Positions 3,872 to 63,112 of a stretch of 64,000 nucleotides of DNA are shown one piece after another. The notes under the pieces were generated by a model. The model had not been told where the DNA came from and made no database searches. It saw only the letters and a list, made by a program, of their open reading frames with translations. Source of the DNA: a virus (lineage: Duplodnaviria > Caudoviricetes); the IMG/VR virus record IMGVR_UViG_3300033498_000048, positions 64,001 through 128,000 of that record; one strand, given 5' to 3'. The number at the start of each line of letters is the position of its first letter. Position 1 is the first letter of the stretch. The translations under genes and the position numbers were made by a program.

Positions 3872-4385
3872 TTCAATGAGTTAGCACTTATAGGTGTTGG
3901 GTAATTAGTAACCTGTTCCAAATGCTAACCTATTGATATTGTTAGTGTATATTATTATCAATTAAATCAATAAGTTAGCACTTATAGGTGTTGGGTAATT
4001 AGTAACCTGTTCCAAATGCTAACCTATTGATATTGTTAGTGTATATTATTATCAATTAAATCAATAAGTTAGCACTTACAGTTTGGTATTAGTTAGTTAA
4101 TGGTTGCAAGTGCTAACTCATTGATTTGTAGTAATTGACAATGATGACACATGGACACGATATATTGATAACCAAGAATCAATGAGTTAGCACTTGGAAC
4201 AGGTTACTAATTAACCAACACATACAAATGCTATGTCATTGATATTTAACACCTAACTAATTGGCTAACAGAATCAATGACATAGCATTTGCAGCTATTA
4301 TATAATTAACTAACACCTCTAAGTGCTAAGTCATTGATAGTTGGTGCTATTGATTGTTTAGTTGAAAATCAAAGGGTTAGCATTT
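3872..4385. repeat. 66-bp dyad element cluster A (5 complete units + 1 half site)
   Basis: Left arms end at 3889, 3983, 4077, 4195, 4290 (half site 4385); each complete unit has a 30-nt core with central TAATTA/TAGTTA followed by the inverse arm. Confidence 0.95.
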
Positions 4386-4706
4386 GGAGCATAAACCGAT
4401 TGCATTAATAATTTCGCCCCATGAAACAGCTCTGTTTATTCCCAAATCGTAACCATAATCTTCAGTTTCTTGATTATAGTCTGTAGATATAACGTAACGG
4501 GTTGAATCGTCATCGTGTAACATTCCAAGGTCAACTGTAACTGGAGTTAAACTACCATCATTATCAATGTAGTACGAATCGCAGTAAACTTCAAATGTTC
4601 CAAGTTTGGTGAAATTAAAAACCCTAGAAAATTTACAGTCTGCATAATAATTGGGTGCAAGTGGTATTTGATGCAATATTGTTGTTCCAACTTGTTTTGT
4701 TTTCAT
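4377..4706 (-). CDS. hypothetical protein between element clusters A and B
   Basis: 109-aa ORF with its own promoter; stop codon lies in a repeat arm. Confidence 0.65.
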   Translation of the reverse strand: MKTKQVGTTILHQIPLAPNYYADCKFSRVFNFTKLGTFEVYCDSYYIDNDGSLTPVTVDLGMLHDDDSTRYVISTDYNQETEDYGYDLGINRAVSWGEIINAIGLCSKC

Positions 4707-4737
4707 GTTAGAAACCCCTGTTAGTTAATGAAGACGC

Positions 4738-4767
4738 ATTATAATACAACCTACAGATTAACGTCAA
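4738..4767 (-). promoter_or_regulatory. sigma70-like early promoter
   Basis: TTGACG-N18-TATAAT. Confidence 0.6.
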
Positions 4768-4794
4768 TGCGTTAGGAATTTAATAATTCGTTCC

Positions 4795-5177
4795 GATTGC
4801 TAACCTATTGATTTAATTGAGAATTATATACTAATATTATCAATAGGTTAGCACTTGTAACCATCTTATAATTAACTAACTGCTGCAAGTGCTATCTTAT
4901 TGATAACTAAGCACAAACTTATGTGGCATAAGAATCAATGATGATATGTGGAACAATTTGTGTCCATCAAGTTAGCACTTCCCAGTTTGTGTTAATAATT
5001 GACATGAATACACTCAACCAACTATCAATGAGTTAGCACTTACAACTGGTTACTAATTACCTAACTGCTTAAAGTGCTAACGCATTGATTTGTATAGTGC
5101 ATATTTTTACATATAATTATCAACAAGATAGCACTTGGAACAGTGTTATTAATTACCTAATGGCTGCAAGTGCTAAC
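4795..5177. repeat. 66-bp dyad element cluster B (3 units + 2 half sites)
   Basis: Units 4839-4904, 5024-5089, 5119-5177 (31-nt core); half sites near 4795-4812 and 4965-4980. Confidence 0.93.
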
Positions 5178-5179
5178 GC

Positions 5180-5187
5180 TATAAATA
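5180..5187 (+). promoter_or_regulatory. T4-type late promoter
   Basis: TATAAATA 28 nt upstream of the structural gene ATG; the same octamer precedes the 12089 and 23165 genes. Confidence 0.7.
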
Positions 5188-5214
5188 TTATAAAAATTAA
5201 CAAGAGAAACTAAT

Positions 5215-7068
5215 ATGTCAGGATATAAAAGCCAAGTTCAATATGATGCACCAGTAAGTTTTTGGACGTTTGATGGTGATTTGTTTGATACTGGTGTTAG
5301 GGTTTTAATGCCAGCAAGTGGTGAACCGATGTATATAATGGATGAAATTGAAAATCAAAATCCAGCAATATTACAAGTTCAAAGTTTACAGGGACCACAT
5401 GGTTATCGTATGGGTATTTCTAGTTTAGTTCAACTTGAAACATCAGACCAAGCAGCGTGTTCATTTGGATTTTATGGAAGACAACCAACACATCCAGACG
5501 ATGGTTGGGCAAAAGCATATTTAACAATACCTCATAGTATTCAATATTCATTTCCAAATAATGGTTCATTCAGTATTGAGTTTATGTTCAATAAAACAAC
5601 TGAAAATGATTATGCAAATTGGTACTATGGAAAGTATAATAATTATTATCAAATACCAATATCACGTCCAATATTTTACAAAACAAATGTAATTGATATA
5701 CATTCGTTGTTTTATTATGGGAATTATTTAGTTATTAAGTTTCCAAGTAACGTAACAATTAATTTAGACATTAGTAAACATATTGGAAAGGATACTCACT
5801 TTGCTTTATCGTGGAACGTTATTGAAACTTCTTCTAATGTATATGAGGCAACCGAAACTGTTTATATTGAATCAAGAATTGTATATCAATTTAAACGAAC
5901 ATATTATGATGTTTACCCTAACACAAATGTGGCACAAGATTGGGAAATTGCTGGTATATCAAACAATTCAAGTCTATATCATTCAGATAGGAATACATCA
6001 TCACTAAAACTCGACCAAATAGCGATATATGATTATGCTTTAAGTGTTGATAATGTAGCAAATCATTATAAGAAGCTTAGGGAATATGATAAAATGATAG
6101 TTAATGATGGGGCTGAATATTTTTATCCAATGGATGAAGACGATAGCCTTACCGATTGGACTATAAGAGAACCATCGTATAAGAATCAACACAGTAATGT
6201 TGTTGCTAATTATATTGGTAATATATCAACACTATCAAGAGGGAACCCTGGACCAAGAACTATTCCATTAGCAGTAGCACCTACATTCACAAACGGAGCT
6301 AGTGCATTTATCAAAACCAATAATACTTATTCTCCAGTATTTCCAATCACAAATGAATATACAGTGGAGTTTTGGTTTAATTCAAGCCACGCACAACGTG
6401 GGATATTACTATCACAACAAGGTGAGGAATACCCATATTCAGGAATATTGGTAACATTGAATTGGAGAGACAATGCAATTAATAATGGTGCAATCCAATG
6501 GAATATTAACGATGAATATTACATTTGTTCATTAGAATATGATGAATTGTTTAATCCATATTACTTCAATGATGGTAATTGGCATCATATAGTGCTATTA
6601 AGAAGAAGTGGATTGTATATGGAATTATGGTTAGATGGAATATTACACAATTCAGTACAAATGCCTAATGTTTCAGTACAATCAACTGGAAGCATATATA
6701 TGATGGGAATAAAACCTGGACACTTTAGTATGAATGGACAAATATGTAAACTTGCCTATTATGGATTTGCATTACAACAACAACAAATTCAATGTAGGCA
6801 TTCATATTCGATAACATTTAAAATAAAGGGAATTGTTACATTGCGAGGTGTTCCAACAAAAGCAACTATTAGAGCATACGACCACGGAACTGGACACCTA
6901 ATACAAGAACAAGAAAGTGACATTAACAATGGTGAATATACAATTGTTTTGTCCAACAATAGAAAGATTGATTTGATGGTATTCGATAAGAATGATAGAA
7001 GTGTTCGGTATAGAGCTTATGGACCAATAACCCCAAGTGAATATGAAGACTTACCAATCTTAATATGA
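5215..7068 (+). CDS. virion protein with two LamG/concanavalin A-like domains and C-terminal Ig/carboxypeptidase-regulatory-like domain
   Basis: FSIEFMF, YTVEFWF, DGNWHHIVLLR, LWLDG, LDQIAIYDYALS motifs; late promoter. Confidence 0.75.
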   Translation: MSGYKSQVQYDAPVSFWTFDGDLFDTGVRVLMPASGEPMYIMDEIENQNPAILQVQSLQGPHGYRMGISSLVQLETSDQAACSFGFYGRQPTHPDDGWAKAYLTIPHSIQYSFPNNGSFSIEFMFNKTTENDYANWYYGKYNNYYQIPISRPIFYKTNVIDIHSLFYYGNYLVIKFPSNVTINLDISKHIGKDTHFALSWNVIETSSNVYEATETVYIESRIVYQFKRTYYDVYPNTNVAQDWEIAGISNNSSLYHSDRNTSSLKLDQIAIYDYALSVDNVANHYKKLREYDKMIVNDGAEYFYPMDEDDSLTDWTIREPSYKNQHSNVVANYIGNISTLSRGNPGPRTIPLAVAPTFTNGASAFIKTNNTYSPVFPITNEYTVEFWFNSSHAQRGILLSQQGEEYPYSGILVTLNWRDNAINNGAIQWNINDEYYICSLEYDELFNPYYFNDGNWHHIVLLRRSGLYMELWLDGILHNSVQMPNVSVQSTGSIYMMGIKPGHFSMNGQICKLAYYGFALQQQQIQCRHSYSITFKIKGIVTLRGVPTKATIRAYDHGTGHLIQEQESDINNGEYTIVLSNNRKIDLMVFDKNDRSVRYRAYGPITPSEYEDLPILI

Positions 7069-18264: not shown

Positions 18265-18267
18265 AAT

Positions 18268-22328: not shown

Positions 22329-23112
22329 GGAACAACTATTATAATTAACTAACACGTCCAAGTGCTAACTTATTGATTTAATTGAATTATGGTAAAATGC
22401 TTAATAAACAGTTAGTTAGCACTTAGACACATTAGGTAATTACTAACACGATGCAAGTGCTAACCCATTGATTGTTGGTATTCATGTCAATTATTAAGAA
22501 TCAATAAGTTAGCACTTGGACGTGTTAGTTAATTATAATACTGTCTAAGTGCTAACCCATTGATTTAACTGGCTTATGGTGAAAATGTTTAATAAACAAG
22601 TTAGTTAGCATTTAGAAGACCATCTGCAAGTGCTAACAGTCACTTAACAAGTAACTTTGTAAGATATTAACTCATCTACAAAAAATTCATCCAAGCCTCT
22701 TTGTGTAATGGTTCAGTAAGATATGTAAAGATACTATTAATTTCACTACTAACAAATTTAATACATTATCCATTTTATGCTCCACATTTACCATTAGTTG
22801 TAATTTATAAAAGTATAGTCATTTGACAGTCCGATGTCAACTATCAGTGTATATTCATGTCAATTATGAAGAATCAATGACTTAGCACTTGGAACGGTTA
22901 TATAACTAACTAACACCATCAAGTGCTAACTTATTGATTTGATTGAGTTATGATAAAGACTTAATAAGCAGTCAGTTAGCACTTAGAATCACTCAATAAG
23001 GTGCTAACGCTTAATAATTGACAACGAATAGATAACACAACCAACTATCAATGAGTTAGCACTTGCAACCATTATATAATTAATACACCCATGTAAGTGC
23101 TAACTTATTGAT
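22329..23112. repeat. 66-bp dyad element cluster C (5 units incl. one lacking left arm, plus 2 short-core variants)
   Basis: Cores 22329-22359, 22425-22454, 22518-22546, 22891-22920, 23065-23094; 14-nt-core variants 22614-22627 and 22985-22998. Confidence 0.93.
22812..22840 (-). promoter_or_regulatory. sigma70-like promoter inside cluster C
   Basis: TTGACA-N17-TATACT. Confidence 0.65.
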
Positions 23113-50518: not shown

Positions 50519-50522
50519 GATT

Positions 50523-51524
50523 TTAAAAATGTATTTTAGATAGTGGAGTTCCCTTGTTATATCTATTAGTTACTGGTTTAATATTACACAATTTAGTAAC
50601 ACATGGATATAATGTAATATCGTTTTCTATTAGATATGATTGTGTAATATCAATTGCGTCCAACATAAACTTACTTCTTGTTGTTATTAGCAATTGACTT
50701 CCAGAAGTATTAGCATATTGTAAATATTCAAATGCCAATTCAAATAGAAAGTCCGAATTAATGTTTGCTTCTGGTGTATCAATAACAATCATTGATTTGT
50801 TTTTTAAATCAAGGACTAGCATATTGAAAAATAGGTTTAATTCCCCAATTGACATATATTTTAAAATCCTATCAAAATGATAATCAATAGGATACATCAA
50901 CATATAATCAAACTTATCACTAAGCTGTGTGCATAATTGTTTAAAGTTTTTTTCTGTGATTAAACTAGAATCAAATTTTGATGTGTCTATGATTTGTATT
51001 CCAAGTAAAAATTGTCTAATAGACCCAATAGTATCTAATGAATCGTTAATATTAAACTTCAATGCCAAATCATCAAATGGATATGGATTGGTGTTAAACA
51101 CTGGAGCGTATGAATAGTTAATCATATCAAATTCATTTACAATAAACTCGATTCCACTAAATGAGTGATATAGAATATAATACGATTTTCCATTGATATT
51201 ACAACCAATAGATTCTTCACGAATAAATACTCCATTTTTAGTGTCAAACCCTATATCTAATTGATAAGATATTAAGTTATCAAATACCAAGTCAAATCTA
51301 ATGAATTGATTATTTCCAAACACATCTTCAATACCACCTCGTTTTGAAATTGCTGTTTTTAAATCTGTAACCAAACAGTCTTGGATAAACGCAATTGTAT
51401 CAATCAATCTCGTTTTGCCTGTTCCGTGTATTCCATACACAAAACTAAGATTATGTGGAATGTCCTTAAGTATCAGTTCACCTAATCCTTTATAGTTTTG
51501 AATTTTTATGTGTTTTAGTTTCAT
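50523..51524 (-). CDS. ABC/AAA_21-family ATPase, catalytically degenerate
   Basis: IKIQNYKG, GIHGTGKT (Walker A), MSIGE, IVIDTPE (Walker B E>T), ITTRS (H-loop H>R). Confidence 0.75.
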   Translation of the reverse strand: MKLKHIKIQNYKGLGELILKDIPHNLSFVYGIHGTGKTRLIDTIAFIQDCLVTDLKTAISKRGGIEDVFGNNQFIRFDLVFDNLISYQLDIGFDTKNGVFIREESIGCNINGKSYYILYHSFSGIEFIVNEFDMINYSYAPVFNTNPYPFDDLALKFNINDSLDTIGSIRQFLLGIQIIDTSKFDSSLITEKNFKQLCTQLSDKFDYMLMYPIDYHFDRILKYMSIGELNLFFNMLVLDLKNKSMIVIDTPEANINSDFLFELAFEYLQYANTSGSQLLITTRSKFMLDAIDITQSYLIENDITLYPCVTKLCNIKPVTNRYNKGTPLSKIHF

Positions 51525-51745
51525 TTTTTGGAACTGTCCAATTTATTTTTTTCATTCGTTAAATCGTTTCAATGATATACCTCATTAAAACCTTTACCCA
51601 TAAGAATAGCACTTTGCTGCAAATTTAATTGCAAAAGACAAAGCTTCTTCATTTTCTTTAAAAGCTTTGTAAAGAGGTGACTCTAATTTTTTTAACTTTA
51701 TTATCAATAGTTAGTCGATTAAGGACAATTGGTCTTTTTCGTTCT

Positions 51746-51928
51746 TCATAATATATCATTCCTATATTTATTTGTAAACTCAACCAAAGCTTCACTTGGA
51801 TTAAAATAATTCGTCACAAACTTTAAACTATCAACGGATGCTCTTCCATCTACAACACCTTGCCAATAAAAGGATTCCATATCTGATTTAGTGTATAGTC
51901 CAAAATACCTTAGTATTCTTTTCAGCAT
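51746..51928 (-). CDS. hypothetical protein
   Basis: ORF track. Confidence 0.45.
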   Translation of the reverse strand: MLKRILRYFGLYTKSDMESFYWQGVVDGRASVDSLKFVTNYFNPSEALVEFTNKYRNDIL

Positions 51929-52167
51929 TAATTTTTAATCCTAATTGATATAGTTGATATAGTACCAAAATAAGTGATTTCACATTCAGCGATAACCATT
52001 CCAGCTAACGTGTCTTTAATGTCATTAACAATAGCAGCTATATTAGCCTGTATGCAGTGAATTAACAATACTTCATTAATTGTACGGTCAAGTGAAACTG
52101 TTGTTCCAGGGTATTTAACAGTTAATTCCAACAACTTACTTTTTATTAACATTGATTCAATATTCAT
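51928..52167 (-). CDS. hypothetical protein
   Basis: ORF track. Confidence 0.5.
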   Translation of the reverse strand: MNIESMLIKSKLLELTVKYPGTTVSLDRTINEVLLIHCIQANIAAIVNDIKDTLAGMVIAECEITYFGTISTISIRIKN

Positions 52168-52563
52168 TTAAATATGGACTCCATTAACATGGTCAACTTC
52201 GTGTTGTGCTATAAATGATGCTAGTCCAGATAACTTATACATTACTGGTTCAAAGTCGGTATTAACTCCTTGTAATGTGACTCGATAGTGCCGTTGCTTT
52301 TTAACTGCTTTGTTTGGAAATGATAAACAACCTTCTTTGCTAGTCTTTTTTTCAAGACTCTTAGCTGTAATTACTGGATTAACTATCGTTACAAACTCAC
52401 CATTAATTTTAACGATAATGATACTTTTAGTTATTCCAATTTGAACTGCTGCAATTCCAACACCATTACCTATATTGTTCAATAATTCCAACTCAATTTG
52501 TTTAACATCGTCATATTCAGTCAACATTTCAGATGGAACGTTAATATAATCATTTGTAAACAT
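52168..52563 (-). CDS. def: peptide deformylase
   Basis: GVGIAAVQIG, EGCLSFP, QHEVDH motifs. Confidence 0.95.
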   Translation of the reverse strand: MFTNDYINVPSEMLTEYDDVKQIELELLNNIGNGVGIAAVQIGITKSIIIVKINGEFVTIVNPVITAKSLEKKTSKEGCLSFPNKAVKKQRHYRVTLQGVNTDFEPVMYKLSGLASFIAQHEVDHVNGVHI

Positions 52564-52592
52564 TTTAACTCCCCGTATTAGTTTATAGTCGT

Positions 52593-52621
52593 ATTATATA
52601 GGCTTAATGATTCAATGTCAA
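52593..52621 (-). promoter_or_regulatory. sigma70-like early promoter
   Basis: Perfect TTGACA-N17-TATAAT abutting element cluster D. Confidence 0.75.
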
Positions 52622-52883
52622 ACAACAAGTTAGCACTTGCAACAATTAGGTAATTAACACTGTCCAAGTGCTAACTCGTTGGTTTAATTGATGATAGTTG
52701 GCTCATAATTAAATCAATAGGTTAGCACTTACATGGGAGTGCTAATTATATAACCGTTCTAAGTGCTAACCTATTGATTTAATTGAGAATGATTGAGAAT
52801 GATTATAGCCTAACAATATCAATGAGTTAGCACTTACAGGTTAGTATTAGTTATATAACTGTTCCAAGTGCTAACCTATTGAT
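52621..52883. repeat. 66-bp dyad element cluster D (3 units)
   Basis: Cores 52639-52665 (27 nt), 52731-52760, 52836-52865; middle unit has perfect 20-bp arms. Confidence 0.95.
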
Positions 52884-52982
52884 GTATAATAATTGACAAG
52901 AATGATAGTAGTGGAACAGTTGTTTTTGTGTGTTAGTCTTCTATTTGTTCCATTTTTAGTTTATTCAACCCATTAGTTTATT

Positions 52983-53372
52983 TTAACTGGAAGTCAACTT
53001 GACAAAAACAGAATCATATTCTTCTTTAAACATCGCAATTTTGTTTTTGATTAGAGTTATATCGTATTCCAATGATGTTATGTGCCTTGCCCTTAACTCT
53101 AGGTAATATAGCTTACATTCTTTTTCATCTGTAAACAAATTTAACTCAGCTCCACTTGTATTACCAAATAACTTTATTTCTTTTTTCGTTACATCTCCCT
53201 TTGAATTGATTACACGAAAACGACCATTATCTCCAACTTGCACGTTTGTTGGAATAACATTTCGTTGTGGATTCTCATTTCCAGTATATGTAAAGTAATA
53301 TGCACATACCCACAAACTCATACCACAAAATTCTTTACCAGTATAAGCATATTCATTAAACTCTAATTTCAT
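52983..53372 (-). CDS. hypothetical protein
   Basis: ORF between clusters D and E. Confidence 0.6.
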   Translation of the reverse strand: MKLEFNEYAYTGKEFCGMSLWVCAYYFTYTGNENPQRNVIPTNVQVGDNGRFRVINSKGDVTKKEIKLFGNTSGAELNLFTDEKECKLYYLELRARHITSLEYDITLIKNKIAMFKEEYDSVFVKLTSS

Positions 53373-53776
53373 TTAATATTCCCTGTGTATCCTAGTAATC
53401 CAAAGTCTAGGATTGTACTTAATAACAAATCACATTCACTATTGGACAACTTAATATAATGTGTTTTAAACTTTCTTGCAATTGCAACAACTTCTTTGTA
53501 TCGGGTTATCATATTTCTTTCAAGTTTTTTAAATTCGATTATATCGGAATATAAACCTGGATTAGGTTTATTATCCTTGTGTACCATGCAATATTTCATT
53601 ATCAATTTATTAACTGAAAATTTGGTAATTTCCATAGCTTTAGTTATATGCTTTGAATTAACCAACTTTACATCTAAGCAATTAGTGTAATTAGTCGATA
53701 AGCGATGTTTTAACTGTTGATACAACTTTAACCTATCAGCTAATGGCATATCAAGTAATTCATATTTTTTGTTCAT
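53369..53776 (-). CDS. hypothetical protein
   Basis: ORF with GGAG RBS and promoter. Confidence 0.6.
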   Translation of the reverse strand: MNKKYELLDMPLADRLKLYQQLKHRLSTNYTNCLDVKLVNSKHITKAMEITKFSVNKLIMKYCMVHKDNKPNPGLYSDIIEFKKLERNMITRYKEVVAIARKFKTHYIKLSNSECDLLLSTILDFGLLGYTGNIK

Positions 53777-53804
53777 TATTTAACTCCAATGTTTTTGTTG
53801 GCGA

Positions 53805-53833
53805 ATTATATTCAGTATTCCAAACAATGTCAA
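53805..53833 (-). promoter_or_regulatory. sigma70-like early promoter
   Basis: Perfect TTGACA-N17-TATAAT. Confidence 0.75.
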
Positions 53834-53855
53834 CGCAATATCGTTCAAACTATAA

Positions 53856-54141
53856 ATCAATGACTTAGCACTTGGAACAGTTATATAATTAAGACCAATC
53901 TGCAAATGCTAACTTGTTGATTCTAATAACATTCATCTAAACTCAATTAAATCAACAAGTTAGCATTTGGAACGGTTATATAATTAAGACCACGCTGTAA
54001 GTGCTAAGTCATTGATTCTTTATAATTGACAATGATTGATAGTGTATAGAATACATATTAACAGGTAAATACAAAATCAATAACTTAGCACTTGGAACTA
54101 TTAGGTAATTATAAGACCTGTCTAAGTGCTAAGTCATTGAT
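53856..54141. repeat. 66-bp dyad element cluster E (3 units)
   Basis: Cores 53874-53903, 53969-53998, 54094-54123, all 12+TAATTA+12. Confidence 0.95.
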
Positions 54142-54155
54142 TTTTGAATAGTGAT

Positions 54156-54485
54156 TCATCTAATATTTTCGTACCAGAATTTAACTCTAGGAGGTTCATC
54201 GAAACACCAAACAGATATTATTTCAGGCATATAGCAATATTCAGACTCAGCTTTACGCATAGTTTTTCCAGACTTTCTTGCTGTGTCAATTATCAATATT
54301 GGACTCAATTCTTTTGGTATTTGTGTTCCATACGGAATAAATGGAACACCTAATAAATATGATGAATATACAGCAGCTATAGCACCACTACGACCTGGAC
54401 CAGTAACACTATTAACTTTCTTTATATTAGACAACTTAGCCTTTAAAACCGTTTGAAATTCAACCTCTGTCACAATTCTACTCAT
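54156..54485 (-). CDS. phosphoribosyltransferase-fold protein
   Basis: GPGRSGAI...LGVP; ILIIDTARKSGKTM (PRPP-loop like). Confidence 0.6.
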   Translation of the reverse strand: MSRIVTEVEFQTVLKAKLSNIKKVNSVTGPGRSGAIAAVYSSYLLGVPFIPYGTQIPKELSPILIIDTARKSGKTMRKAESEYCYMPEIISVWCFDEPPRVKFWYENIR

Positions 54486-54501
54486 ATTTTAGCTTATCCT
54501 T

Positions 54502-54646
54502 AAAATCAATAGGTTAGCACTTGCAACGGTTATATAATTACTAACACGATGCAAGTGCTAACCTATTGATTTTTGTGTGTTAATAATTGACAACGATAAT
54601 AGATGGAACATCCATCTTAACTGGTACATAATTATTAACACATTGG
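54502..54646. repeat. dyad element F (perfect 21-bp arms) plus armless core
   Basis: AAAATCAATAGGTTAGCACTT-N30-AAGTGCTAACCTATTGATTTT (54502-54573); core remnant AACTGGTACATAATTATTAACAC centred 94 bp downstream. Confidence 0.92.
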
Positions 54647-54654
54647 GTTATAGT

Positions 54655-54942
54655 TCATAAGATAATTTGGTATTTCTTTATTTCCTCTCGATAATATTTA
54701 CACATTATCATACCAACATTTGGGTAATGTTCACTTTCAATGATACTCGTATCTAATGCTTGTTGGCAAAATACTATTTCACGTTTAGCTAACTCCAAAG
54801 CATATTCTAAATTTATGTCAGCTAATTTTAGTATAAGTTCGTCCGTGTTTTTAATGTTCCCAAGCTCTGGGTCTACAACTTTAAATGAACATTGTCCATT
54901 AGATGCTTGTTGGAAGTGGAAGTTCCAATCATTTGCGTTCAT
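54655..54942 (-). CDS. hypothetical protein, paralog A (MNANDWN...)
   Basis: Start reassigned to 54942 by homology with 55202-55513 and promoter position. Confidence 0.7.
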   Translation of the reverse strand: MNANDWNFHFQQASNGQCSFKVVDPELGNIKNTDELILKLADINLEYALELAKREIVFCQQALDTSIIESEHYPNVGMIMCKYYREEIKKYQIIL

Positions 54943-54970
54943 ACATACCTCGGTGATAATTAAAAGTGGT

Positions 54971-54999
54971 AATATACATAATATTTCAGCTATTGTCAA
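54971..54999 (-). promoter_or_regulatory. sigma70-like promoter (duplicated at 55544-55572)
   Basis: TTGACA-N17-TATATT. Confidence 0.6.
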
Positions 55000-55006
55000 A
55001 TATACA

Positions 55007-55176
55007 AATCAATGAGTTAGCATTTGCAGTGTGTTAATAATTATATAACTTCTGTAAATGCTAACTCATTGATTGTTAGTAGTTGACAATGGTAGTTCCA
55101 TGTACATCCACTTTAACGGGTTACACATGGAACTATTAGGTAATTAATAACACTATGCAAGTGCTAACCTGTTGTT
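55007..55176. repeat. dyad element cluster G (1 full + 1 lacking left arm)
   Basis: 55007-55074 perfect 19-bp arms; core 55129-55158 + right arm. Confidence 0.92.
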
Positions 55177-55201
55177 TTGCTTATAATTGTATATTGACTG
55201 A

Positions 55202-55513
55202 TTATAGTCTAACTCGCACAATAAACACCCTTTTGAATTTTTGTATTTCACTAGAATAATATTCACACATTATTCTACTAATATATGGGAAGGGGTCTGT
55301 TTTCATTTCTTCCTCATAATAAGATAACCATTTTTCACAAAATACTATTTCACGTTTAGCTAACTCCAAAGCATATTTTAAATTTATTTCAGCCATCTTT
55401 AGTATAAGTTCATCTGTATTTTTAATATTACCGATTTCTGGTTGAATAACTTTAAATGTACATTGTCCATTAGATGCTTTTTGAAAATTATAGTTCCAAT
55501 CATTTGCGTTCAT
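55202..55513 (-). CDS. hypothetical protein, paralog B (MNANDWN...)
   Basis: 49/59 N-terminal residues identical to paralog A (hand count). Confidence 0.7.
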   Translation of the reverse strand: MNANDWNYNFQKASNGQCTFKVIQPEIGNIKNTDELILKMAEINLKYALELAKREIVFCEKWLSYYEEEMKTDPFPYISRIMCEYYSSEIQKFKRVFIVRVRL

Positions 55514-55543
55514 ATTATAAATCCGTTAGTGATTAAAAGTGAC

Positions 55544-55572
55544 AATATACATAATATTGCATCTATTGTCAA
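55544..55572 (-). promoter_or_regulatory. sigma70-like promoter
   Basis: TTGACA-N17-TATATT. Confidence 0.6.
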
Positions 55573-55581
55573 CTACTATAA

Positions 55582-55840
55582 ATCAATACCTTAGCACTTG
55601 TACTGGTCTTATAATTACCTAATACACCCAAGTGCCAACTTATTGATTCTTAACAATCGGATACATGGAACGTTCAAATGCTAACCTAATGGTTCTTAAT
55701 GTTTATGTTATACAAATCAACAGGTTGGCATTTACAACTGGTACATAATTATAAGACCAGTACAAGTGCTAAGGTGTTGATAACTGACAATGGTAGTTTC
55801 CATGTTCCATTCAAAATATAACTCAATAACTTAGCACATG
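55582..55840. repeat. dyad element cluster H (2 units + 2 half sites)
   Basis: Cores 55600-55629 and 55734-55763; half sites near 55676 and 55823-55839. Confidence 0.92.
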
Positions 55841-55910
55841 GAACAGATACACAATTAACTACATTATGCTGTTGATTTATGGTTGGACTGTAATTTAGCC
55901 ATTCCCAAAT

Positions 55911-55918
55911 ACTAAATA
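55911..55918 (+). promoter_or_regulatory. variant T4-type late promoter
   Basis: ACTAAATA 34 nt upstream of ATG 55952. Confidence 0.45.
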
Positions 55919-55951
55919 TCATATACTTTAATTAACGTGGAGATAACACAA

Positions 55952-56767
55952 ATGTTGACATTTAATGATTTTAAAAATTCAACTCAAAGTCAAGATATAA
56001 TTTATAACGAAAACTACTGTGATTACTTAGATGCAATATCATTAATAGAATCATATTATTCAAATCAATTATCTGAAAATATTATCACGGAATTGCCTGA
56101 TAAATTGAAAGATAAATTTGATTTCATTAAATCTATTGCTGATGTGGCAAAGATGGACATTTCAGAACTAATATCTATAATTAAGTTTCCTAGTGTATTT
56201 GAGTTTTTTGATTCGATTAAATTTAACTTAGCTAAGTTTTATAATATATTAAAACAAGGCTATAAATCGTATATTGAATTGGAACATGAAGTTTCTAAGT
56301 TTGCAGCTAATCAAAAAATAATGAAGTGGACCACTGCAAACTTAGAACTATTAGATGATTATTTGATGAATAACAAAGCACTCCACAGAATTACTGGAGT
56401 GGCAGCATCTGGAATCTTATTGTTTATGTGGATGCACCAATCACACACTGGTAACATAGACCACGACTTTAATGCTGATGATATTGTCAATGCTATGAAG
56501 GGGGAATATGAATTAGCAGATTTATTTGGAGGACATGAGGGTGCGAAACGATTGATGTTATTTGCTGTTGGTATCACCGTCCATGTTACATTCCCTTGGC
56601 CCACACCTAGCGATGTAAGCCTTATCATTGGACTAATACGAAATTTGAGAAAAACTATGAAGGTTAGAATCGAAAATGAAAAGGCTAACGAACCACCTAA
56701 ATTAATACCACGACCACATAAGGGAACTACCAGTAAAAAAAGAACTACCGAATCTTTTATGTGGTGA
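55952..56767 (+). CDS. putative late/virion or membrane protein
   Basis: GGAG RBS before MLTFNDFK start (track uses GTG 55937); two short hydrophobic segments. Confidence 0.6.
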   Translation: MLTFNDFKNSTQSQDIIYNENYCDYLDAISLIESYYSNQLSENIITELPDKLKDKFDFIKSIADVAKMDISELISIIKFPSVFEFFDSIKFNLAKFYNILKQGYKSYIELEHEVSKFAANQKIMKWTTANLELLDDYLMNNKALHRITGVAASGILLFMWMHQSHTGNIDHDFNADDIVNAMKGEYELADLFGGHEGAKRLMLFAVGITVHVTFPWPTPSDVSLIIGLIRNLRKTMKVRIENEKANEPPKLIPRPHKGTTSKKRTTESFMW

Positions 56768-56775
56768 TTCCAAAA

Positions 56776-56839
56776 ATCAATAAGTTAGCACTTGCTGGTT
56801 TGTATTAATTATAACACTGTCCAAGTGCTAACCTGTTGA
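56776..56839. repeat. single dyad element I between convergent genes
   Basis: ATCAATAAGTTAGCACTT-N29-AAGTGCTAACCTGTTGA. Confidence 0.9.
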
Positions 56840-56847
56840 ATTACTGA

Positions 56848-57201
56848 TTAGTTTAGTCCAGACGCATACAGTTCAGCAGCTTCTATAAATCCAAGCTCAA
56901 ATTGTATTAATTTTTTAGCCCACAATGGTGCATTCCATGCTGATAAGATGAAGTTTAATATAATGCTATCTATGTGTTTATGGGTAGGTTTTTCTCCAAA
57001 TTGTGTTGGTAAATAATAATCACCCATCATATCCATTGCTAACGCTTTACCAATTTCCTTACTGTACCTATCTTTTTTATTTGAAAAACTATAACCAAAT
57101 CTAATCACATATCTACCTTTTTTATTGGACGTTAATTCAGACGCTATTGTAATAACATTAGTGTGGATTAATCCAGTATTGCCGATGTATTTAAATCTCA
57201 T
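56848..57201 (-). CDS. conserved phage hypothetical protein
   Basis: GYSFSNKKDRYSKEIGKALA motif. Confidence 0.6.
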   Translation of the reverse strand: MRFKYIGNTGLIHTNVITIASELTSNKKGRYVIRFGYSFSNKKDRYSKEIGKALAMDMMGDYYLPTQFGEKPTHKHIDSIILNFILSAWNAPLWAKKLIQFELGFIEAAELYASGLN

Positions 57202-57288
57202 GCTGTTTACTCAATTATTAAAAACTATATTGTACACAAGGACAGTTCAATAAGATGTTGACTGTAGAACTGTCCTTAAACAACCAAT

Positions 57289-57648
57289 TTACGATTTCAC
57301 TCGAACATTCATACAAGTTATACTTCCAGACTCGGAAAATATATTTTTACCAACATCACCTTTAACCTCAACTGAACCTGTAACAGTTGCAACATCACCT
57401 CCAACCGAACCAGTAACGACAACATTACCTGATTGAGTTCTAATAGTTTCAAGTGTTGGACTTGTGACATTGATTGTAATTGATGTGTTAGGTTTAAAGG
57501 CAGTGTGGATTTTACCATCAACTAAAACCTCATTATCTGTTACAAACACACGATTACCGTTAGTGACATTTACAATAGTGCTATTGTCTCCAAAATTAAT
57601 ACTTCCACCTGTTACATTACCTATAAAAGTTTGTTTCCGTTCTGACAT
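57289..57648 (-). CDS. beta-helix/DUF4097-like small protein
   Basis: SGNVVVTGSVGGDVATVTGSVEVKGDVG repeats. Confidence 0.6.
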   Translation of the reverse strand: MSERKQTFIGNVTGGSINFGDNSTIVNVTNGNRVFVTDNEVLVDGKIHTAFKPNTSITINVTSPTLETIRTQSGNVVVTGSVGGDVATVTGSVEVKGDVGKNIFSESGSITCMNVRVKS

Positions 57649-57677
57649 ATATTACCTACATTAAATTAATTAAATTA

Positions 57678-57729
57678 ATAAGTTAGCACTTGAACGATTT
57701 GATAAAAATAATCTGTCACAAGTGCTAAT
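57678..57729. repeat. degenerate dyad element J
   Basis: ATAAGTTAGCACTT-N28-AAGTGCTAAT; core diverged. Confidence 0.75.
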
Positions 57730-57732
57730 AAA

Positions 57733-59016
57733 TCACCTCTTAGCATCATATTCTGGATTAATGAACTTACATGATAAGTTATTTGTTTCCATCGTTCTAA
57801 CCACAATTCCTTCGATTATTTCACCATTTTTCTTGTGTTCATCAAACATCAACTGGACAGTATTACACAAGTCTTCATAACTATGTGGGGTAATTACCGT
57901 TGTTGGAACAACTGGTAGATTTAAGTCTTTAGCAACATTCCACAAATCGTAACCATTCAAACGAATAGCATTGGGACCAGATACATCATCCAAACCAAAC
58001 AATATCAATCCTTGTTCTTTTTTAGAATGTGGATTGTGTTTGTTTCCAGAACCTTTCAATCCCTTACCATAAATCTCAGCTCTAAATGCCAATTCCAAAT
58101 CATTATCTAAACAGTATTGATACCCCTTATCTAATAACCCAGATGATTTTGAAATATCAACCCATGAGTCCTTATAAGCTATTTCAATTGGAGTTAAATC
58201 ACTAACATTATCATTGGTTCTAAAATCTCCAGTTTCTTCGCACAACCATCCCCTAGTATTGTCAGCAAAATGCTTTCTATAGGGTTTAAACTCATTATCA
58301 ACATAATGGGAAACAACTGTGGGGTTTAATTTTTTCAAAAACATTCTGGAACACACAAAAGGCTTCAATTCACCGTTGATTTTTTTGAATGCAACTGTTA
58401 AAGATGAACCATCCACTTTCAAAGACAACCCCAATGGCTCTCCACGCTCAATAACCATTTTTATGTGATTGACGATGTTTTGATACATAATTTCATCTGT
58501 TTTGTACATCCAATATGGAAAATCACCTTGAATTAATCCATTAGATTGTGTTGAAGGTTCAGGCTCTTCATACTTCACAATTTCCAAGGCTTCAGTCAAG
58601 TTACAATCACCAATATTAATTCCCTTATTAATTAAATATGATTCAACTAATTGGAAAGATAATAAGATTCCAAAAGACCAAATCGGTTGAATATCATCCT
58701 CAAATGAAAATGTAAATTTAGACGATTTAATCCTATTGTTCGTTCCTAATCTAGTTCGTTTTGGTTCACCACCTGGAGCTATAAATTCACTAAATAACTC
58801 TGTGTTAGGAACACAATAATCTGGTTGAATGAAAATTGCCTTATCTCCAATTTCATATAATCCGATTTGTGCAATTAGATTAAATCCACAAGTTTCACCT
58901 GTTCGGTCAAATGTGAATCTAACAACTTCAATGTTAGTAGCTGCTTCGCCGTTTTTTTGAATTTTTAAATTTTGATTAATTGTAACCAGTTCTACTGGAT
59001 TAACTTCATTTGTCAT
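57733..59016 (-). CDS. RNA ligase (Rnl2/DRB0094-like) with N-terminal OB-like domain
   Basis: FIQPD, SLKVDGSS (motif I), RAEIYGKG, IEGIVVR, KFINPEY. Confidence 0.85.
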   Translation of the reverse strand: MTNEVNPVELVTINQNLKIQKNGEAATNIEVVRFTFDRTGETCGFNLIAQIGLYEIGDKAIFIQPDYCVPNTELFSEFIAPGGEPKRTRLGTNNRIKSSKFTFSFEDDIQPIWSFGILLSFQLVESYLINKGINIGDCNLTEALEIVKYEEPEPSTQSNGLIQGDFPYWMYKTDEIMYQNIVNHIKMVIERGEPLGLSLKVDGSSLTVAFKKINGELKPFVCSRMFLKKLNPTVVSHYVDNEFKPYRKHFADNTRGWLCEETGDFRTNDNVSDLTPIEIAYKDSWVDISKSSGLLDKGYQYCLDNDLELAFRAEIYGKGLKGSGNKHNPHSKKEQGLILFGLDDVSGPNAIRLNGYDLWNVAKDLNLPVVPTTVITPHSYEDLCNTVQLMFDEHKKNGEIIEGIVVRTMETNNLSCKFINPEYDAKR

Positions 59017-59019
59017 ATT

Positions 59020-59349
59020 TTATTCCTTAATGTGGTTTTGATACCAATCTTTATATTTTGTATATTGTGCTGTTGCATCTGAAAAATTGTAAATGTTACC
59101 TCCAATTTTAATATACTCAGCAAACTGGTAAATATTCATTTTTTCAACTGTTGGAAAAAATAATACTACTAATTTATTATCACGAATAAATACTCCAGAA
59201 ATATAATCTTTATTCACATTCAACAAGTCTTGTAATATACTTTCTTTTGAATCATATCTTCCAGTTCCTACATATGTCGTGAAATATTCATAACTACAGG
59301 GGGTTAGCATTGTGATTGTTCCTTTTAAATTTAGTGTTTTTATGTCCAA
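59020..59349 (-). CDS. hypothetical protein
   Basis: ORF track. Confidence 0.55.
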   Translation of the reverse strand: MDIKTLNLKGTITMLTPCSYEYFTTYVGTGRYDSKESILQDLLNVNKDYISGVFIRDNKLVVLFFPTVEKMNIYQFAEYIKIGGNIYNFSDATAQYTKYKDWYQNHIKE

Positions 59350-59639
59350 CTAATCTCAAATGAGTTAATATCAAGCTCTTGTCCATAGGTTGGGGTATAT
59401 GATATTTTAAAATTTGAGCATATTAAAAATCTAGCGATATGCGTTTGCTGTTCACTAGAAATTTGAGCATCGAAGCGTAATGTCATACAAATTTCACCAC
59501 GCGAAGCACTTTCCGTAAATAACAATATAAGATATTCGATATATTTTTTGCTCTCATCTGTTAATAAGTTTAATAAAGCTTCCATTGATATTTTTTTAAT
59601 ATCGTTGGCATTTAATGTACTAAATTGTTGTACTACCAT
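59340..59639 (-). CDS. hypothetical protein
   Basis: ORF track. Confidence 0.55.
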   Translation of the reverse strand: MVVQQFSTLNANDIKKISMEALLNLLTDESKKYIEYLILLFTESASRGEICMTLRFDAQISSEQQTHIARFLICSNFKISYTPTYGQELDINSFEISWT

Positions 59640-59869
59640 ATTATTTTATTCCTTAATTTATATTGGGTAGAATTTAACGCATTAATAAACCCACCATCTT
59701 TAAATTTGAGTTTAGTGTTTATAAACCTTTCCAAGTCTTTTTTTGTCCAGTATTTACAATACACAAACCAGCCTAAATTGATTTTTTGATAAATGATTTT
59801 GTTAGTTTGGTCGACTTTATATTCTCCACTATCATTAATCTCGTTAATTAATTCTTTAATGTTACTCAT
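59633..59869 (-). CDS. hypothetical protein
   Basis: ORF track. Confidence 0.5.
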   Translation of the reverse strand: MSNIKELINEINDSGEYKVDQTNKIIYQKINLGWFVYCKYWTKKDLERFINTKLKFKDGGFINALNSTQYKLRNKIIW

Positions 59870-60185
59870 TGTTTTTCATCCAATAGTTTAACAAATCATC
59901 ACATACAACCCAAACTTCATCTCCATACATATTCACAATGAAAGACTCAACAGTATCACCATCTTCTTTCAAACCTAACTTAATGAGATTGTTGTGGAGC
60001 TTTACCACACAATATTCACCAAGACCCATAGCCTTTAGTAAACCATGTTGTTTACTTCTTTCAAATGCTTCTTGTAATTCCCTAGGTAGTGTATAAAGTG
60101 GACCCAATACAGACTCGCACTTATTAATAACGGTTTTGTTTGTTGGTTTAAACTCAACTCCAACTAACTCAGTTTGTTCTGTCAT
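59862..60185 (-). CDS. hypothetical protein
   Basis: ORF track. Confidence 0.55.
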   Translation of the reverse strand: MTEQTELVGVEFKPTNKTVINKCESVLGPLYTLPRELQEAFERSKQHGLLKAMGLGEYCVVKLHNNLIKLGLKEDGDTVESFIVNMYGDEVWVVCDDLLNYWMKNNE

Positions 60186-60304
60186 ATCTTAATTCCCCCT
60201 AACTACTCTTTGGATACCACACTTGGAACATCGTTCATAGTGGAAATTATCGGTGTATGGTCCATCGTACACCCATGAGTGTAATCCAATTCTACACATA
60301 ATCC

Positions 60305-60616
60305 TTACTCCGATATTGAAGCTGATAAGTTCCCAAAAACATCTTGGTCTATTACCAACCAAAACGATTCATCATCATCGTGACAAAAACGTATATACCA
60401 TGCACTTGTTCCATCTGCATCATTCTCATAGCCAACATAGTTCCAATGTGAATGCTCTATGCCGTTGATTGCAGATGTTATCGACTCTATTAAGAACTTC
60501 TTATCATCGACATAATCACCTTTATTAAAAGTCACTTCTGCATTTACATCATATGATAATGCTACGTTCAATATACTATCAATGATTTCGGTTATATTAT
60601 ACATTATTGTACCCAC
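60305..60616 (-). CDS. acidic hypothetical protein
   Basis: ORF track. Confidence 0.55.
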   Translation of the reverse strand: MGTIMYNITEIIDSILNVALSYDVNAEVTFNKGDYVDDKKFLIESITSAINGIEHSHWNYVGYENDADGTSAWYIRFCHDDDESFWLVIDQDVFGNLSASISE

Positions 60617-60885
60617 ACATATTCAATTGCACTATGAACCATATAAACACATGGTTTACCATCATATTTACTGGAATAAAACCTAACATGATAATCGTTT
60701 TTTACTGTTGGACAAGTACCAAACTCAACTAAGTCTGATGTGTCGATATGACGAATAAATGTATTATATTTGATTTCCCGACCACGTCCTGTCATTTCAG
60801 TGATTAATCTACCTGAAAGATTGACACAACTTCCAATAAGACTTTTTTTCATTTTTAATGCCTTGTGGTTAAAATAAAAACACAT
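60604..60885 (-). CDS. conserved phage hypothetical protein
   Basis: DYHVRFYSSKYDGKPCVYMVHSAIEYVW motif. Confidence 0.65.
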   Translation of the reverse strand: MCFYFNHKALKMKKSLIGSCVNLSGRLITEMTGRGREIKYNTFIRHIDTSDLVEFGTCPTVKNDYHVRFYSSKYDGKPCVYMVHSAIEYVWVQ

Positions 60886-60963
60886 AATAATCCTATTCTA
60901 ATCCAATGTCAATTTATTTTTGTAACAATGGAGTCTATGTGTCTAGTGGGATTTCAGACAACT

Positions 60964-61809
60964 TTATCCAACAAATGTTGTTTTAGCATTGACTTGTTTT
61001 TTATCTGTTATTGTTACAATAACATCATCGGTGATAGTAAATTTAACTTCAGAATATGAAATGTATTTTCCAGTGTCCATCATAATATGGGAACATTTAT
61101 CAGTATGTCCTATTAGATGAGTTCCATCCCAAGTATATGGATTACCATGTAAATCATTAAATGTACCAATATTTGGTTCTAATGTTTTAAGGTATGCTTT
61201 TTTACCAACTACATTCAAGTTATTGTACATATCAGAAAAACCTTTGTTTTCCACCATTTGAGTGAATAGTGTTGGGAATTTATGACTAATTTGTAATATT
61301 AAAATTGGCAATAACTCTGAGTATTCCCGATACGACCACGGGCTTGAAAAGTCTGATTGGGTTAAGGTACAAATAAGGAGTAGATTAATTGATGTGAAAT
61401 CATTAACACCAATCATATTAGATTTAAAACAAGTCGGGATTTTAGAACCAACTTCGTCAAGGTTTAGTTTTCTGTTATATGGGAAATAAACATAATCTCC
61501 AATTCGATACAATTGAGTATCAGCTTTAGTTAAAGCGTTTAATACTGGTTTGTACATATCGGACATTTTGTTTATCCATGTATAGAAACCTTTTGCTTTT
61601 GATGTAAATCCTAGTTCTGTGTTTGTTTGTCCGTATGGACATACTGAATCATTTAATTGAATACATTGCCCTAACGCATAAACCTCGCAGTTTGAACAAT
61701 TTGAACACTTTGCTATATAACACGTTGATTTTGCTGTTTTTGATACTCCAAACGACATTTTCATTAAGTTTTTTGTTGGATTATCAACATATGCGTGTAT
61801 TAATTTCAT
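60964..61809 (-). CDS. hypothetical protein with Cys cluster
   Basis: CSNCSNCEVY..GQC...CPYG. Confidence 0.65.
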   Translation of the reverse strand: MKLIHAYVDNPTKNLMKMSFGVSKTAKSTCYIAKCSNCSNCEVYALGQCIQLNDSVCPYGQTNTELGFTSKAKGFYTWINKMSDMYKPVLNALTKADTQLYRIGDYVYFPYNRKLNLDEVGSKIPTCFKSNMIGVNDFTSINLLLICTLTQSDFSSPWSYREYSELLPILILQISHKFPTLFTQMVENKGFSDMYNNLNVVGKKAYLKTLEPNIGTFNDLHGNPYTWDGTHLIGHTDKCSHIMMDTGKYISYSEVKFTITDDVIVTITDKKQVNAKTTFVG

Positions 61810-61891
61810 TTTTAAGTATTTCCTACTGGCTATTTAAGTTCTACAACTTCGTGTTTATTTCCACAGTGTGGACACCATAAGTGCGATGGTA

Positions 61892-62161
61892 TCAATTTAG
61901 GGTCGCCAATTGAAAACCATAACTTACAATCATCACACACAAAATGATATAGTGGTTCAAATGAATACCTTGGGTTGTATTGTTTTCGTTGTTCCACACT
62001 TTACGCTCGCGCTCTCTAAAAGTGTTGCAAATACTATCTGCTTTTGAATAATGAACTAATAGGGCTTTACCCAATTTATAAGATATAACATTAACAAAGC
62101 CAGTTTCTGGTGTTTTTGAATCTGGTAATATGTGAGCTGCATTTTCAAGATTATCTATCAT
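61892..62161 (-). CDS. hypothetical protein
   Basis: ORF track. Confidence 0.45.
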   Translation of the reverse strand: MIDNLENAAHILPDSKTPETGFVNVISYKLGKALLVHYSKADSICNTFRERERKVWNNENNTTQGIHLNHYIILCVMIVSYGFQLATLN

Positions 62162-62164
62162 ATT

Positions 62165-62434
62165 TTAATTCCCTTGTATCCGAGATGCTTTGTGTGCAAT
62201 ATCAACAGAAACCACTAATGCCATATATGCTGAATCACTTTTATTATTCAAATAACTTCTCAATGAATCAGATACATGGTTATCAATTAAAGCAAACATT
62301 TCAGCTTGTTCTAATAACAACAACCGTTTGTGATTAACTTTTTTTAAATGCTCTTTCACATCAGCATTAACACTAAGAGTTTCGATAAAAACGTCTGGAA
62401 TAACAATTCCTTCATACTTGTTGTGTGTTGTCAT
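62165..62434 (-). CDS. hypothetical protein
   Basis: ORF track. Confidence 0.55.
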   Translation of the reverse strand: MTTHNKYEGIVIPDVFIETLSVNADVKEHLKKVNHKRLLLLEQAEMFALIDNHVSDSLRSYLNNKSDSAYMALVVSVDIAHKASRIQGN

Positions 62435-62505
62435 ATTAGCCTACTTTGATGTGATTATTTAATATTTGCAATTATACTCAATTGATTATTTAAGTCAACA
62501 CTTGA

Positions 62506-62862
62506 TTAGATGAAGATTTGTAATGACATGGGAGTTGAAGTATCTCGTTTAGATGATATAAATGCGAGAGCTTCACCCTTTGAATAAAACTCAATACCTT
62601 CTCCAGACTTACAACCAACATATGACACTCCCCACTCAGGACAGCCAGATTTCACCCACCCTATCCTAGGGACAACACTCCACATTTTAGTTGGAATTGT
62701 AGCGTGAATGTCTCCATTCTTGAGAATGAAGTGTGTAACCCCTTTGATTGATACGAAGCCTAGAACACTCCAAGCTAAGTCTTGGAACTCAACTGCTGAT
62801 ATGGTTGGAAGCTGATTAAATATCTTAAGAGTCAGTTTAATTGTTTTGATAGTTACTTGCAT
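62506..62862 (-). CDS. hypothetical protein
   Basis: ORF with GGAG RBS and promoter. Confidence 0.6.
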   Translation of the reverse strand: MQVTIKTIKLTLKIFNQLPTISAVEFQDLAWSVLGFVSIKGVTHFILKNGDIHATIPTKMWSVVPRIGWVKSGCPEWGVSYVGCKSGEGIEFYSKGEALAFISSKRDTSTPMSLQIFI

Positions 62863-62895
62863 AGTATGTTATTACTCCATTCTGATAATTTGAGT

Positions 62896-62924
62896 ATCAT
62901 ACACACTAATAGTATTGGAGTCAA
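62896..62924 (-). promoter_or_regulatory. sigma70-like early promoter
   Basis: TTGACT-N17-TATGAT. Confidence 0.6.
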
Positions 62925-62953
62925 TATTTATCTTTCACTGTCAATTATGAAGA

Positions 62954-63112
62954 ATCAATGAGTTAGCACTTGCATCGTGTTAGTAATTATATAACCGTTC
63001 CAAGTGCTATCTTATTGATTTAATTGAGTATAAATGTATTAGTAATATCAATGAGTTAGCATTTATAACGGTTATATAATTACTAACACGATGCAAGTGC
63101 TAACTCATTGAT
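62954..63112. repeat. dyad element cluster K (2 units in inverted orientation)
   Basis: Cores 62972-63001 and 63065-63094; 46-bp perfect inverted repeat 62954-62999/63067-63112. Confidence 0.95.

Follow-up and report, generated by a model that had tools for sequence, protein, structure and literature searches.

A fixed-length palindromic module in intergenic rows

The virus record IMGVR_UViG_3300033498_000048 of IMG/VR, a phage sequence of 305,782 bp with direct terminal repeats and 31% G+C, carries rows of a 68-bp imperfect palindrome, and the quantity conserved in these rows is the length of each module, not its helical phase. We analysed the element in a window of 64,000 nucleotides (bases 64001-128000 of the record; coordinates are those of the window unless the genome is named) and throughout the genome. 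Since the lengths of arm (19 nt), core (30 nt) and linker (27 nt) are fixed and much of the core and linker sequence is free, the rows may be under a geometric constraint imposed by one or more proteins that read the arms; a linker held at 27 +/- 1 nt would set neighbouring elements about 95 bp apart. The reading that we favour, with confidence that is evenly balanced, is that the rows consist of 68-bp double-stranded DNA docking modules with a fixed geometry and a likely architectural role upstream of early promoters. What was observed directly is the anatomy of the elements, their fixed lengths and independent orientation, their adjacency to promoters and the absence of RNA-type covariation; the binding of a protein, the identity of the binder and the function are what we infer.

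The element reads wATCAATnnGTTAGCACTT - 30 nt - AAGTGCTAACnnATTGATw, that is, two inverted 19-nt arms flanking a 30-nt core. The motif tracked in the first-pass annotation of the window (GTTAGCACTT and its complement) occurs there 60 times, against 3.7 expected. A profile search of the whole genome returned 136 element loci, 94 of them strong, and a position weight matrix of the 19-nt arm found 223 arms, compared to none in a shuffled genome. These arms group into 43 clusters, nearly all of them intergenic (7/223 arms fall inside crude gene calls), and the rows reach up to nine units without genes between. The core is exactly 30 nt long in 83 of 91 elements. Across about 120 copies the conservation of the arms is far above that of the core and the linker, and the two halves of the core differ, which gives the core a polarity. 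We also considered cassettes in which a split palindrome would enclose a gene (left arm, gene, right arm), and rejected them: the two cases, of 409 nt, proved to be unrelated sequences beside eroded full copies.

Neighbouring elements are spaced by a constant length

All the positions listed in the first-pass annotation fall on equivalent positions of this one element, including the pair 54535/54629, which joins the centre of the palindrome 54504-54571 to an arm-less core remnant. The recurrent spacing of 92-96 bp reported there was reproduced, with 13 of the 19 arm-to-arm linkers in the window measuring 24-29 nt (a period of 92-97 bp), and both the secondary spacings of 103-106 and 124-125 bp and the exceptions of 61, 80, 118 and 134 bp are real. 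Genome-wide, the linker is 24-30 nt long in 51 of 73 neighbouring gaps, with a mode at 27 nt (n=23), followed by 26 nt (n=12) and 28 nt (n=8). The mean of these modal linkers is 26.7 nt (sd 1.1), corresponding to a period of 94.7 bp, and their number gives a binomial p of 2e-44 against an even spread over 6-117 nt, confirming that the regular spacing is far beyond chance throughout the genome. The modal length is identical for all four relative orientations of the cores. Spacings of 79-81 bp belong to copies that miss an arm or have a 14-nt core and that retain a normal linker.

The first-pass annotation had interpreted the spacings as a series of 9, 10 and 12 helical turns that would place bound proteins on one face of a wrapped or looped complex. 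This was not borne out, and we consider strict phasing unlikely; the dominant signal is one fixed length. The mode of 94.7 bp does equal 9.0 turns at 10.5 bp per turn (9.05 turns for 95 bp), but chance alone brings 20% of all single values to within 0.1 turn of a whole number. As one sharp mode alone cannot demonstrate phasing, the test was restricted to the non-modal spacings. With the mode included, the Rayleigh R was high (0.43-0.67) at every trial period from 7 to 16 bp and thus uninformative on 10.5 bp. Outside the mode, the genome-wide check at 10.5 bp gave nothing significant: R was 0.31 (p=0.13) for the non-modal linkers (n=22), and p was 0.28 for the L-to-L distances (n=31), the equivalent positions of the first-pass annotation, with a V-test to the phase of 95 bp at p=0.52, and 0.60 for the R-to-R distances (n=28).

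The best period for the L-to-L distances in a scan of 5-20 bp was 7.6 bp, a peak slightly above the 95th percentile of the null maximum and under the 99th, and the non-modal linkers gave p=0.011 at 7.5 bp and p=0.03 at 10.0 bp. The R-to-R distances gave a nominal p of 0.006 at exactly 10.0 bp, so that the nominal 10.0-bp signal (p=0.006-0.03, uncorrected), which speaks for phasing, is present in only two of the three data sets. On the ladder of 27 + k*10.5, 13 of the 22 non-modal linkers were found within 2 bp of a rung, against 10.5 expected. The sole real hint of a one-turn step is a class of eight linkers of 34-38 nt (7 to 11 nt above the mode), with none at 31-33 or 39-42 nt; however, four of these share homology as long forms that end in AACTTAACCAAC, and another is of class 2 (see below) and carries a 10-bp internal duplication. 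Two further observations argue against phasing. The 79-81 bp spacings fall about 1.4 turns below the mode, i.e. about half a turn out of phase, and a shorter core is not offset by a longer linker (at 52620 a core of 27 nt is joined to a linker of 27 nt, and at 22499 a core of 29 nt to linkers of 25 and 29 nt). Presentation on the same helical face at 95 bp is compatible with the data, not demonstrated by them. More generally, a sharp mode that equals a whole number of turns is no evidence of phasing unless other spacings share the ladder.

Linker length is held more tightly than linker sequence

A constant length could also be kept by descent from one recent 94-bp duplication. This is not the case, since recent tandem duplication is limited to 3871-4126 (99% identity), and a tandem-duplication origin of the arrays was rejected save for that region. 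In their cores, adjacent units resemble each other no more than random pairs do (0.604 and 0.619, respectively), and the closest relative of a core is often more than 100 kb distant. In 15 distant pairs with cores 93-97% identical, the identity of the flanks is at the random level (0.2-0.5) and the homology ends at the arm ends, indicating that the unit of copying or conversion is the 68-bp palindrome and not the 95-bp unit. A co-travelling 95-bp unit was likewise rejected: the flanks of near-identical palindromes differ, and the linker class is not tied to the polarity of the core (p=0.25).

Two classes of linker were recognised, each present in either orientation. In class 1 (about 15 of 73 linkers) the arm is followed by 5 nt and then TAATTGAC; in class 2 (about 23 cases) TAATTGAG begins directly at the arm. 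When clustered at 68% identity, the 51 modal linkers formed two related clusters with 33 members, one pair and 16 singletons. Eleven of the 16 singletons are exactly 27 nt long, and about eight linkers (singletons and the pair) can be aligned to nothing and still measure 25-29 nt. Linker length is therefore held more tightly than linker sequence.

The same data bear on the idea that the palindrome is a selfish mosaic repeat of the BIME, REPIN or MITE kind, with no function for the phage, in which the arms would be joints for copying, conversion and inversion, and the spacing would reflect either the way in which copies are made (e.g. each placed at a set distance from one already there) or the origin of the linkers from a small number of modules. 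Near-identical palindromes in unrelated flanks, the sharp end of homology at the arms and the independent assortment of cores and linkers in both orientations are what such a repeat would leave, as are the many eroded half copies, the one recent tandem duplication and the combination of alternating units with few linker types, which matches the description of BIMEs (PMC3333891). Against it, the phage yielded no Y1 (RAYT/TnpA-REP) transposase (PF01797) in a search that detected its controls, and no tyrosine recombinase/integrase or TnpB in a search that did not extend to DDE families; the flank profile has no consistent direct duplication at the element ends, as would be expected of a MITE; the element was not found by exact pattern in IMG/VR or in 185,579 species genomes; and the hairpin compensation typical of REPs is absent. 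In addition, arms so much better conserved than cores and linkers would require selection or very active gene conversion. We regard a purely selfish repeat as a somewhat improbable explanation.

The arms carry the IHF consensus

The arms coincide with the consensus site of IHF (WATCAANNNNTTR, wATCAA-N4-TTA). The consensus has 221 matches in the genome, 165 of which are arms (165/223 arms match exactly), and the 56 matches outside the arms equal the shuffle expectation of 54 +/- 9, so that the excess lies wholly in the arms. The N's of the consensus fall on arm positions 8-10, the variable ones. To our knowledge, some 165 exact IHF sites in one phage genome are far beyond any known regulatory use. 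Going by the consensus match, host IHF would be the only candidate for a protein that reads the arms. Six further conserved bases (GCACTT) and the core are not accounted for by IHF and would imply a second reader. No DNA-binding domain was found in the proteins encoded beside the arrays.

The 27-nt linker might also be set by a molecular ruler, a possibility that we advance tentatively and in two forms. In the first, the phage would use host IHF and a factor reading GCACTT and the core to build a periodic nucleoprotein lattice upstream of early promoters, which could insulate them or titrate a nucleoid protein of the host as a sink. In the second, a copying process would insert every new 68-bp palindrome at a constant distance from a copy already present, which could leave unrelated linkers of equal length. 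We know of no description of either form for a phage.

Evidence for action at the DNA level

The first-pass annotation favoured a DNA-level over an RNA-level function, and this was supported by the lack of covariation, by an orientation independent of transcription, by arrays located upstream of divergent promoters and by the exact IHF consensus in 165 of 223 arms. Pairing at the variable arm positions equals the expectation from independent columns (positions 8/61, 0.43 vs 0.47; 9/60, 0.55 vs 0.54; 17/52, 0.76 vs 0.77), and the core positions 29/40 pair below chance (0.08, with 0.47 expected), the two halves being anti-symmetric. Core polarity is unrelated to the strand of the genes (20 vs 16 where both flanking genes are on the minus strand). 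The arrays 4795-5136 and 22360-23113 each have a leftward sigma-70 promoter on one side and a rightward T4-type late promoter on the other, and are therefore upstream of both.

These results leave very little room for an RNA element, in which hairpins in the early transcripts would be processing sites, stabilisers or small RNAs. Single copies do fold into long hairpins in silico, with predicted energies of -20 to -43 kcal/mol and z from -3.4 to -12.5, and several copies would be in a 5' leader, 10-25 nt before a start codon; however, the stability differs twofold between copies, the stems do not covary, the core takes either orientation relative to transcription, two arrays would be outside both flanking transcripts, and the scan of the window for tRNAs and Rfam families found none. 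The palindromes were also scanned for terminators, which revealed no terminator-like sites and no T-run.

Arrays, early promoters and promoter stubs

The arrays sit between small minus-strand open reading frames, and many of them are followed, after the last palindrome, by a perfect or near-perfect TTGACA-17-TATAAT (in the window at 52621, 53833, 54999 and 55572). The terminal units of about 13-15 arrays adjoin their own sigma-70-type early promoter, while the internal units have a -35-only stub or no promoter part. TTGAC near an arm is offset by 7-9 nt in 31 of 43 arms, and 13 of the 57 strong intergenic promoters have an arm within 60 nt upstream. Other arrays finish 10-25 nt ahead of a start codon, abutting the ribosome-binding site. 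With arms often 7-8 bp upstream of the -35, the architectural role of the modules would probably be to bend the DNA or to insulate it upstream of the early promoters.

The class-1 linkers share with the real promoters after terminal palindromes both the geometry (arm, 8 nt, TTGACA) and an extended -35 (TTGACAWTG). In these linkers the TTGACA is only 14 nt before the next arm, so that about 15 of the 73 linkers, or a fifth, are -35-only stubs of phage early promoters. Linkers as complete promoters were considered and rejected, on account of this 14-nt spacer in class 1 and the lack of a usable -35/-10 pair in class 2. The class-2 box is confined to the interior of arrays (13/103 vs 0/64 arm flanks, p=0.002).

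A second arrangement of palindrome and promoter was seen at 52620 and at genome positions ~184675, 254248 and 281131, where the -35 TTGACA overlaps the last two bases of the arm; its offset is -2 instead of +8, and the two geometries are 10 bp apart. T4-type late boxes (TATAAATA, 5180-5187 and 23122-23129) stand directly after the last arm of two arrays, upstream of the large laminin-G-rich structural genes that start at 5215 and 23165. The search for the genes of the MotA/AsiA middle-promoter system gave no matches, and its positive controls were silent too.

Several observations weigh against the docking-module reading. Two thirds of the modal linkers belong to one TAATTGAS family, in which descent may contribute to the kept length, and about half of the singletons still open with a TAATTGAG-like box, i.e. 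are class-2-like. The eroded half copies, numerous at the array edges, resemble decaying selfish DNA. An HU/IHF homologue was looked for in the phage and none is encoded, which means that the protein would have to come from the host. IHF occupies sites of about 35 bp in full and has its consensus in one half of them (bioRxiv 10.1101/382655); at a distance of 27 bp, two arms that face each other would yield overlapping sites, which makes it sterically doubtful that IHF could occupy all of them. Finally, 44 of the 57 strong promoters lack an arm in the 60 nt upstream of them. If the fixed geometry has a function, about 40 natural arrays of a rigid host-factor docking module would be available in this one phage, in which one could test how nucleoid proteins are used by phages with very large genomes to shape early transcription units or to insulate them.

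Relation to PeSLs, BIMEs and IHF sites

In T4-type phages, PeSLs (promoter-early stem-loops) are stem-loops located just upstream of a strong early promoter among small variable genes (Arbiol 2010, PMC2839356; Comeau 2014, PMC4122927). A PeSL cassette also marks the borders of insertions and deletions among close phage relatives. The palindromes resemble PeSLs in several respects: they occur in a T4-like phage, in intergenic regions among small early genes, as inverted repeats that in the terminal units of many arrays lie just upstream of a near-consensus sigma-70 promoter with an AT-rich upstream stretch. The degraded copies that retain only the -35, here the class-1 stubs, also have a parallel in the half PeSLs that keep only this box and in the misplaced boxes attributed to recombinational slippage (Comeau et al., PMC4122927, Fig. 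5 legend). The rows could accordingly be seen as degraded PeSL cassettes, each a stem-loop with the 5' part of a promoter left by recombination, the 95-bp period being the cassette architecture. We find this improbable. Only about 15 of the 73 linkers belong to class 1, and the box of the commoner class 2 is not a promoter part. Whereas PeSL stem-loops are short, GC-rich and tested terminators, the element described here is 68 bp long with a fixed 19-30-19 build, AT-rich, and has no T-run, terminator match or selection for pairing. Rows of up to nine units with a fixed 95-bp period and no genes between them have not been described for PeSLs, and IHF-consensus arms and class-2 linkers are further differences.

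The BIMEs of enterobacteria (REP/iREP mosaics) are rows of alternating palindromic units with few linker types, and one class has an IHF site (PMC3333891): BIME-1 has it in the L linker, and BIME-2 is tandem (PMC3333891, PMC2817692), with linkers that vary in length (PMC3333891). As in the REP/BIME elements, the arms of the phage palindromes alternate L and R, the linker types are defined, the rows are tandem and intergenic, and an IHF consensus is part of the mosaic; an insulator or architectural role has been proposed for BIMEs as well. Unlike BIMEs, the rows belong to a phage and not to a chromosome, none of the arms is itself a GC-rich hairpin with GTAG, the IHF box lies within the arm instead of the linker, a RAYT transposase and compensatory changes are absent, and the linkers are held to +/-1 nt.

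The exact WATCAANNNNTTR, the AT-rich 5' side and the location upstream of early promoters also recall IHF-dependent promoters and the 35-bp H' site of phage lambda (site geometry from bioRxiv 10.1101/382655). In contrast to these, the sites occur here as facing pairs with a common linker of 27 bp, less than two full sites of 35 bp would take, and six further bases (GCACTT) are conserved beyond the IHF consensus. We file the palindrome as a variant related to the PeSL and BIME kinds and a member of neither; the spacing statistics, the linker analysis and the reading of class-1 linkers as putative promoter stubs are new here.

Arrays in the window

The first array (3871-4385) comprises five palindromes (3871-3938, 3965-4032, 4059-4126, 4177-4244 and 4272-4339) and a half element (4367-4385), with linkers of 26, 26, 50, 27 and 27 nt. 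Its units 1 and 2, and partly 3, are a 94-bp tandem duplication with 99% identity, and position 4290 of the first-pass annotation falls in a degenerate copy of the element. The second (4795-5136) consists of an eroded right arm, two palindromes (4838-4905 and 5023-5090) and a left arm, with an early promoter that reads leftward on one side (-35 at 4767) and a late promoter that reads rightward, TATAAATA (5180-5187), on the other. The largest array of the window (22360-23113) contains four full palindromes, three half elements and two 14-nt-core variants, and is flanked in the same manner: the -35 of the leftward early promoter is at 22302, and the late box TATAAATA, facing rightward, is at 23122-23129. 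The two variants (22604-22637 and 22975-23008) are short palindromes in which the core has 14 nt instead of 30 and the left ATCAAT box is absent. An isolated left arm is present at 878-896.

The remaining arrays are in the last part of the window. Three palindromes at 52620-52884 are separated by linkers of 27 and 37 nt; the longer one (52780-52816) is a class-2 linker in which a 10-bp internal tandem duplication (GAGAATGATT twice) has raised the length from 27 to 37 nt, and the -35 of a perfect early promoter (52621-52593, minus strand) shares bases with the left arm of the first palindrome. Three palindromes are again present at 53855-54142, one of their linkers being 27 nt long and of class 2, the other 57 nt long and of class 1 with a -35 stub; on the minus strand they are followed by the promoter TTGACA-17-TATAAT (53833-53805). 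The single palindrome 54504-54571 is 19 nt upstream of the start codon of the gene 54156-54485 (minus strand), and the arm-less core remnant AACTGGTACATAATTATTAACAC is about 94 bp from it, at ~54617-54641. A palindrome and an eroded copy (55007-55177) lie 7 nt upstream of the early promoter 54999-54971 (minus strand); their paralogous locus, 55581-55839, has two palindromes and two half elements, 8 nt upstream of the early promoter 55572-55544 (minus strand).

The genes 54655-54999 and 55202-55513 (minus strand) are small early paralogues, both starting MNANDWN..., with nearly identical promoters (TTGACAATAG..TATATT) and their own upstream palindrome array each. We compared their upstream regions as filled and empty sites, and the alignment was too diverged to be read. 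Further on, a single palindrome with a 29-nt core (56775-56841) is located between convergent genes, a degenerate palindrome with a 28-nt core (57673-57729) has a right arm without ATTGAT, and two palindromes with nearly identical cores in opposite orientation (62953-63113) are joined by a 25-nt class-2 linker.

The phage and its relatives

The proteins of the phage mark this jumbo phage as a distant T4-type myovirus, with closest cultured relatives at a protein identity of only about 36%. The T4-type markers in the window include two RNA ligases and laminin-G-rich proteins resembling those of the baseplate wedge. Of the two RNA-ligase-family genes, 37213-38304 and 57733-59016 (minus strand), the first is clearly of the T4 Rnl1/tail-fibre-attachment type, and the second is a weak match.

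No relative with the palindrome was obtained by megablast, blastn and tblastn searches of the GenBank phages, by exact-pattern scans of contigs from IMG/VR, metagenomes and species genomes, or by scanning every fetched locus with a model of the element; all that came up were hairpins attributable to chance and isolated words resembling an arm. Loci found by protein guidance were rejected as relatives, as they belong to unrelated phages. Among the sequencing runs listed as holding the sequence, none is of RNA. The source sample of the record is a microbial-mat run. Two freshwater metagenome runs contain contigs of less than 600 nt that are about 90% identical to several genes of the region 50000-64000, and the same runs also contain copies of the palindrome, which shows that a related phage exists outside the microbial-mat sample. 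Some of these contigs mapped in two pieces. We rejected their reading as deletions, since they are other arrays of the same repeat family, and one of the strings between the pieces is the linker at genome position 179,763. The window also encodes, at 52168-52563 (minus strand), a phage peptide deformylase (Pfam PF01327, E 5e-28).

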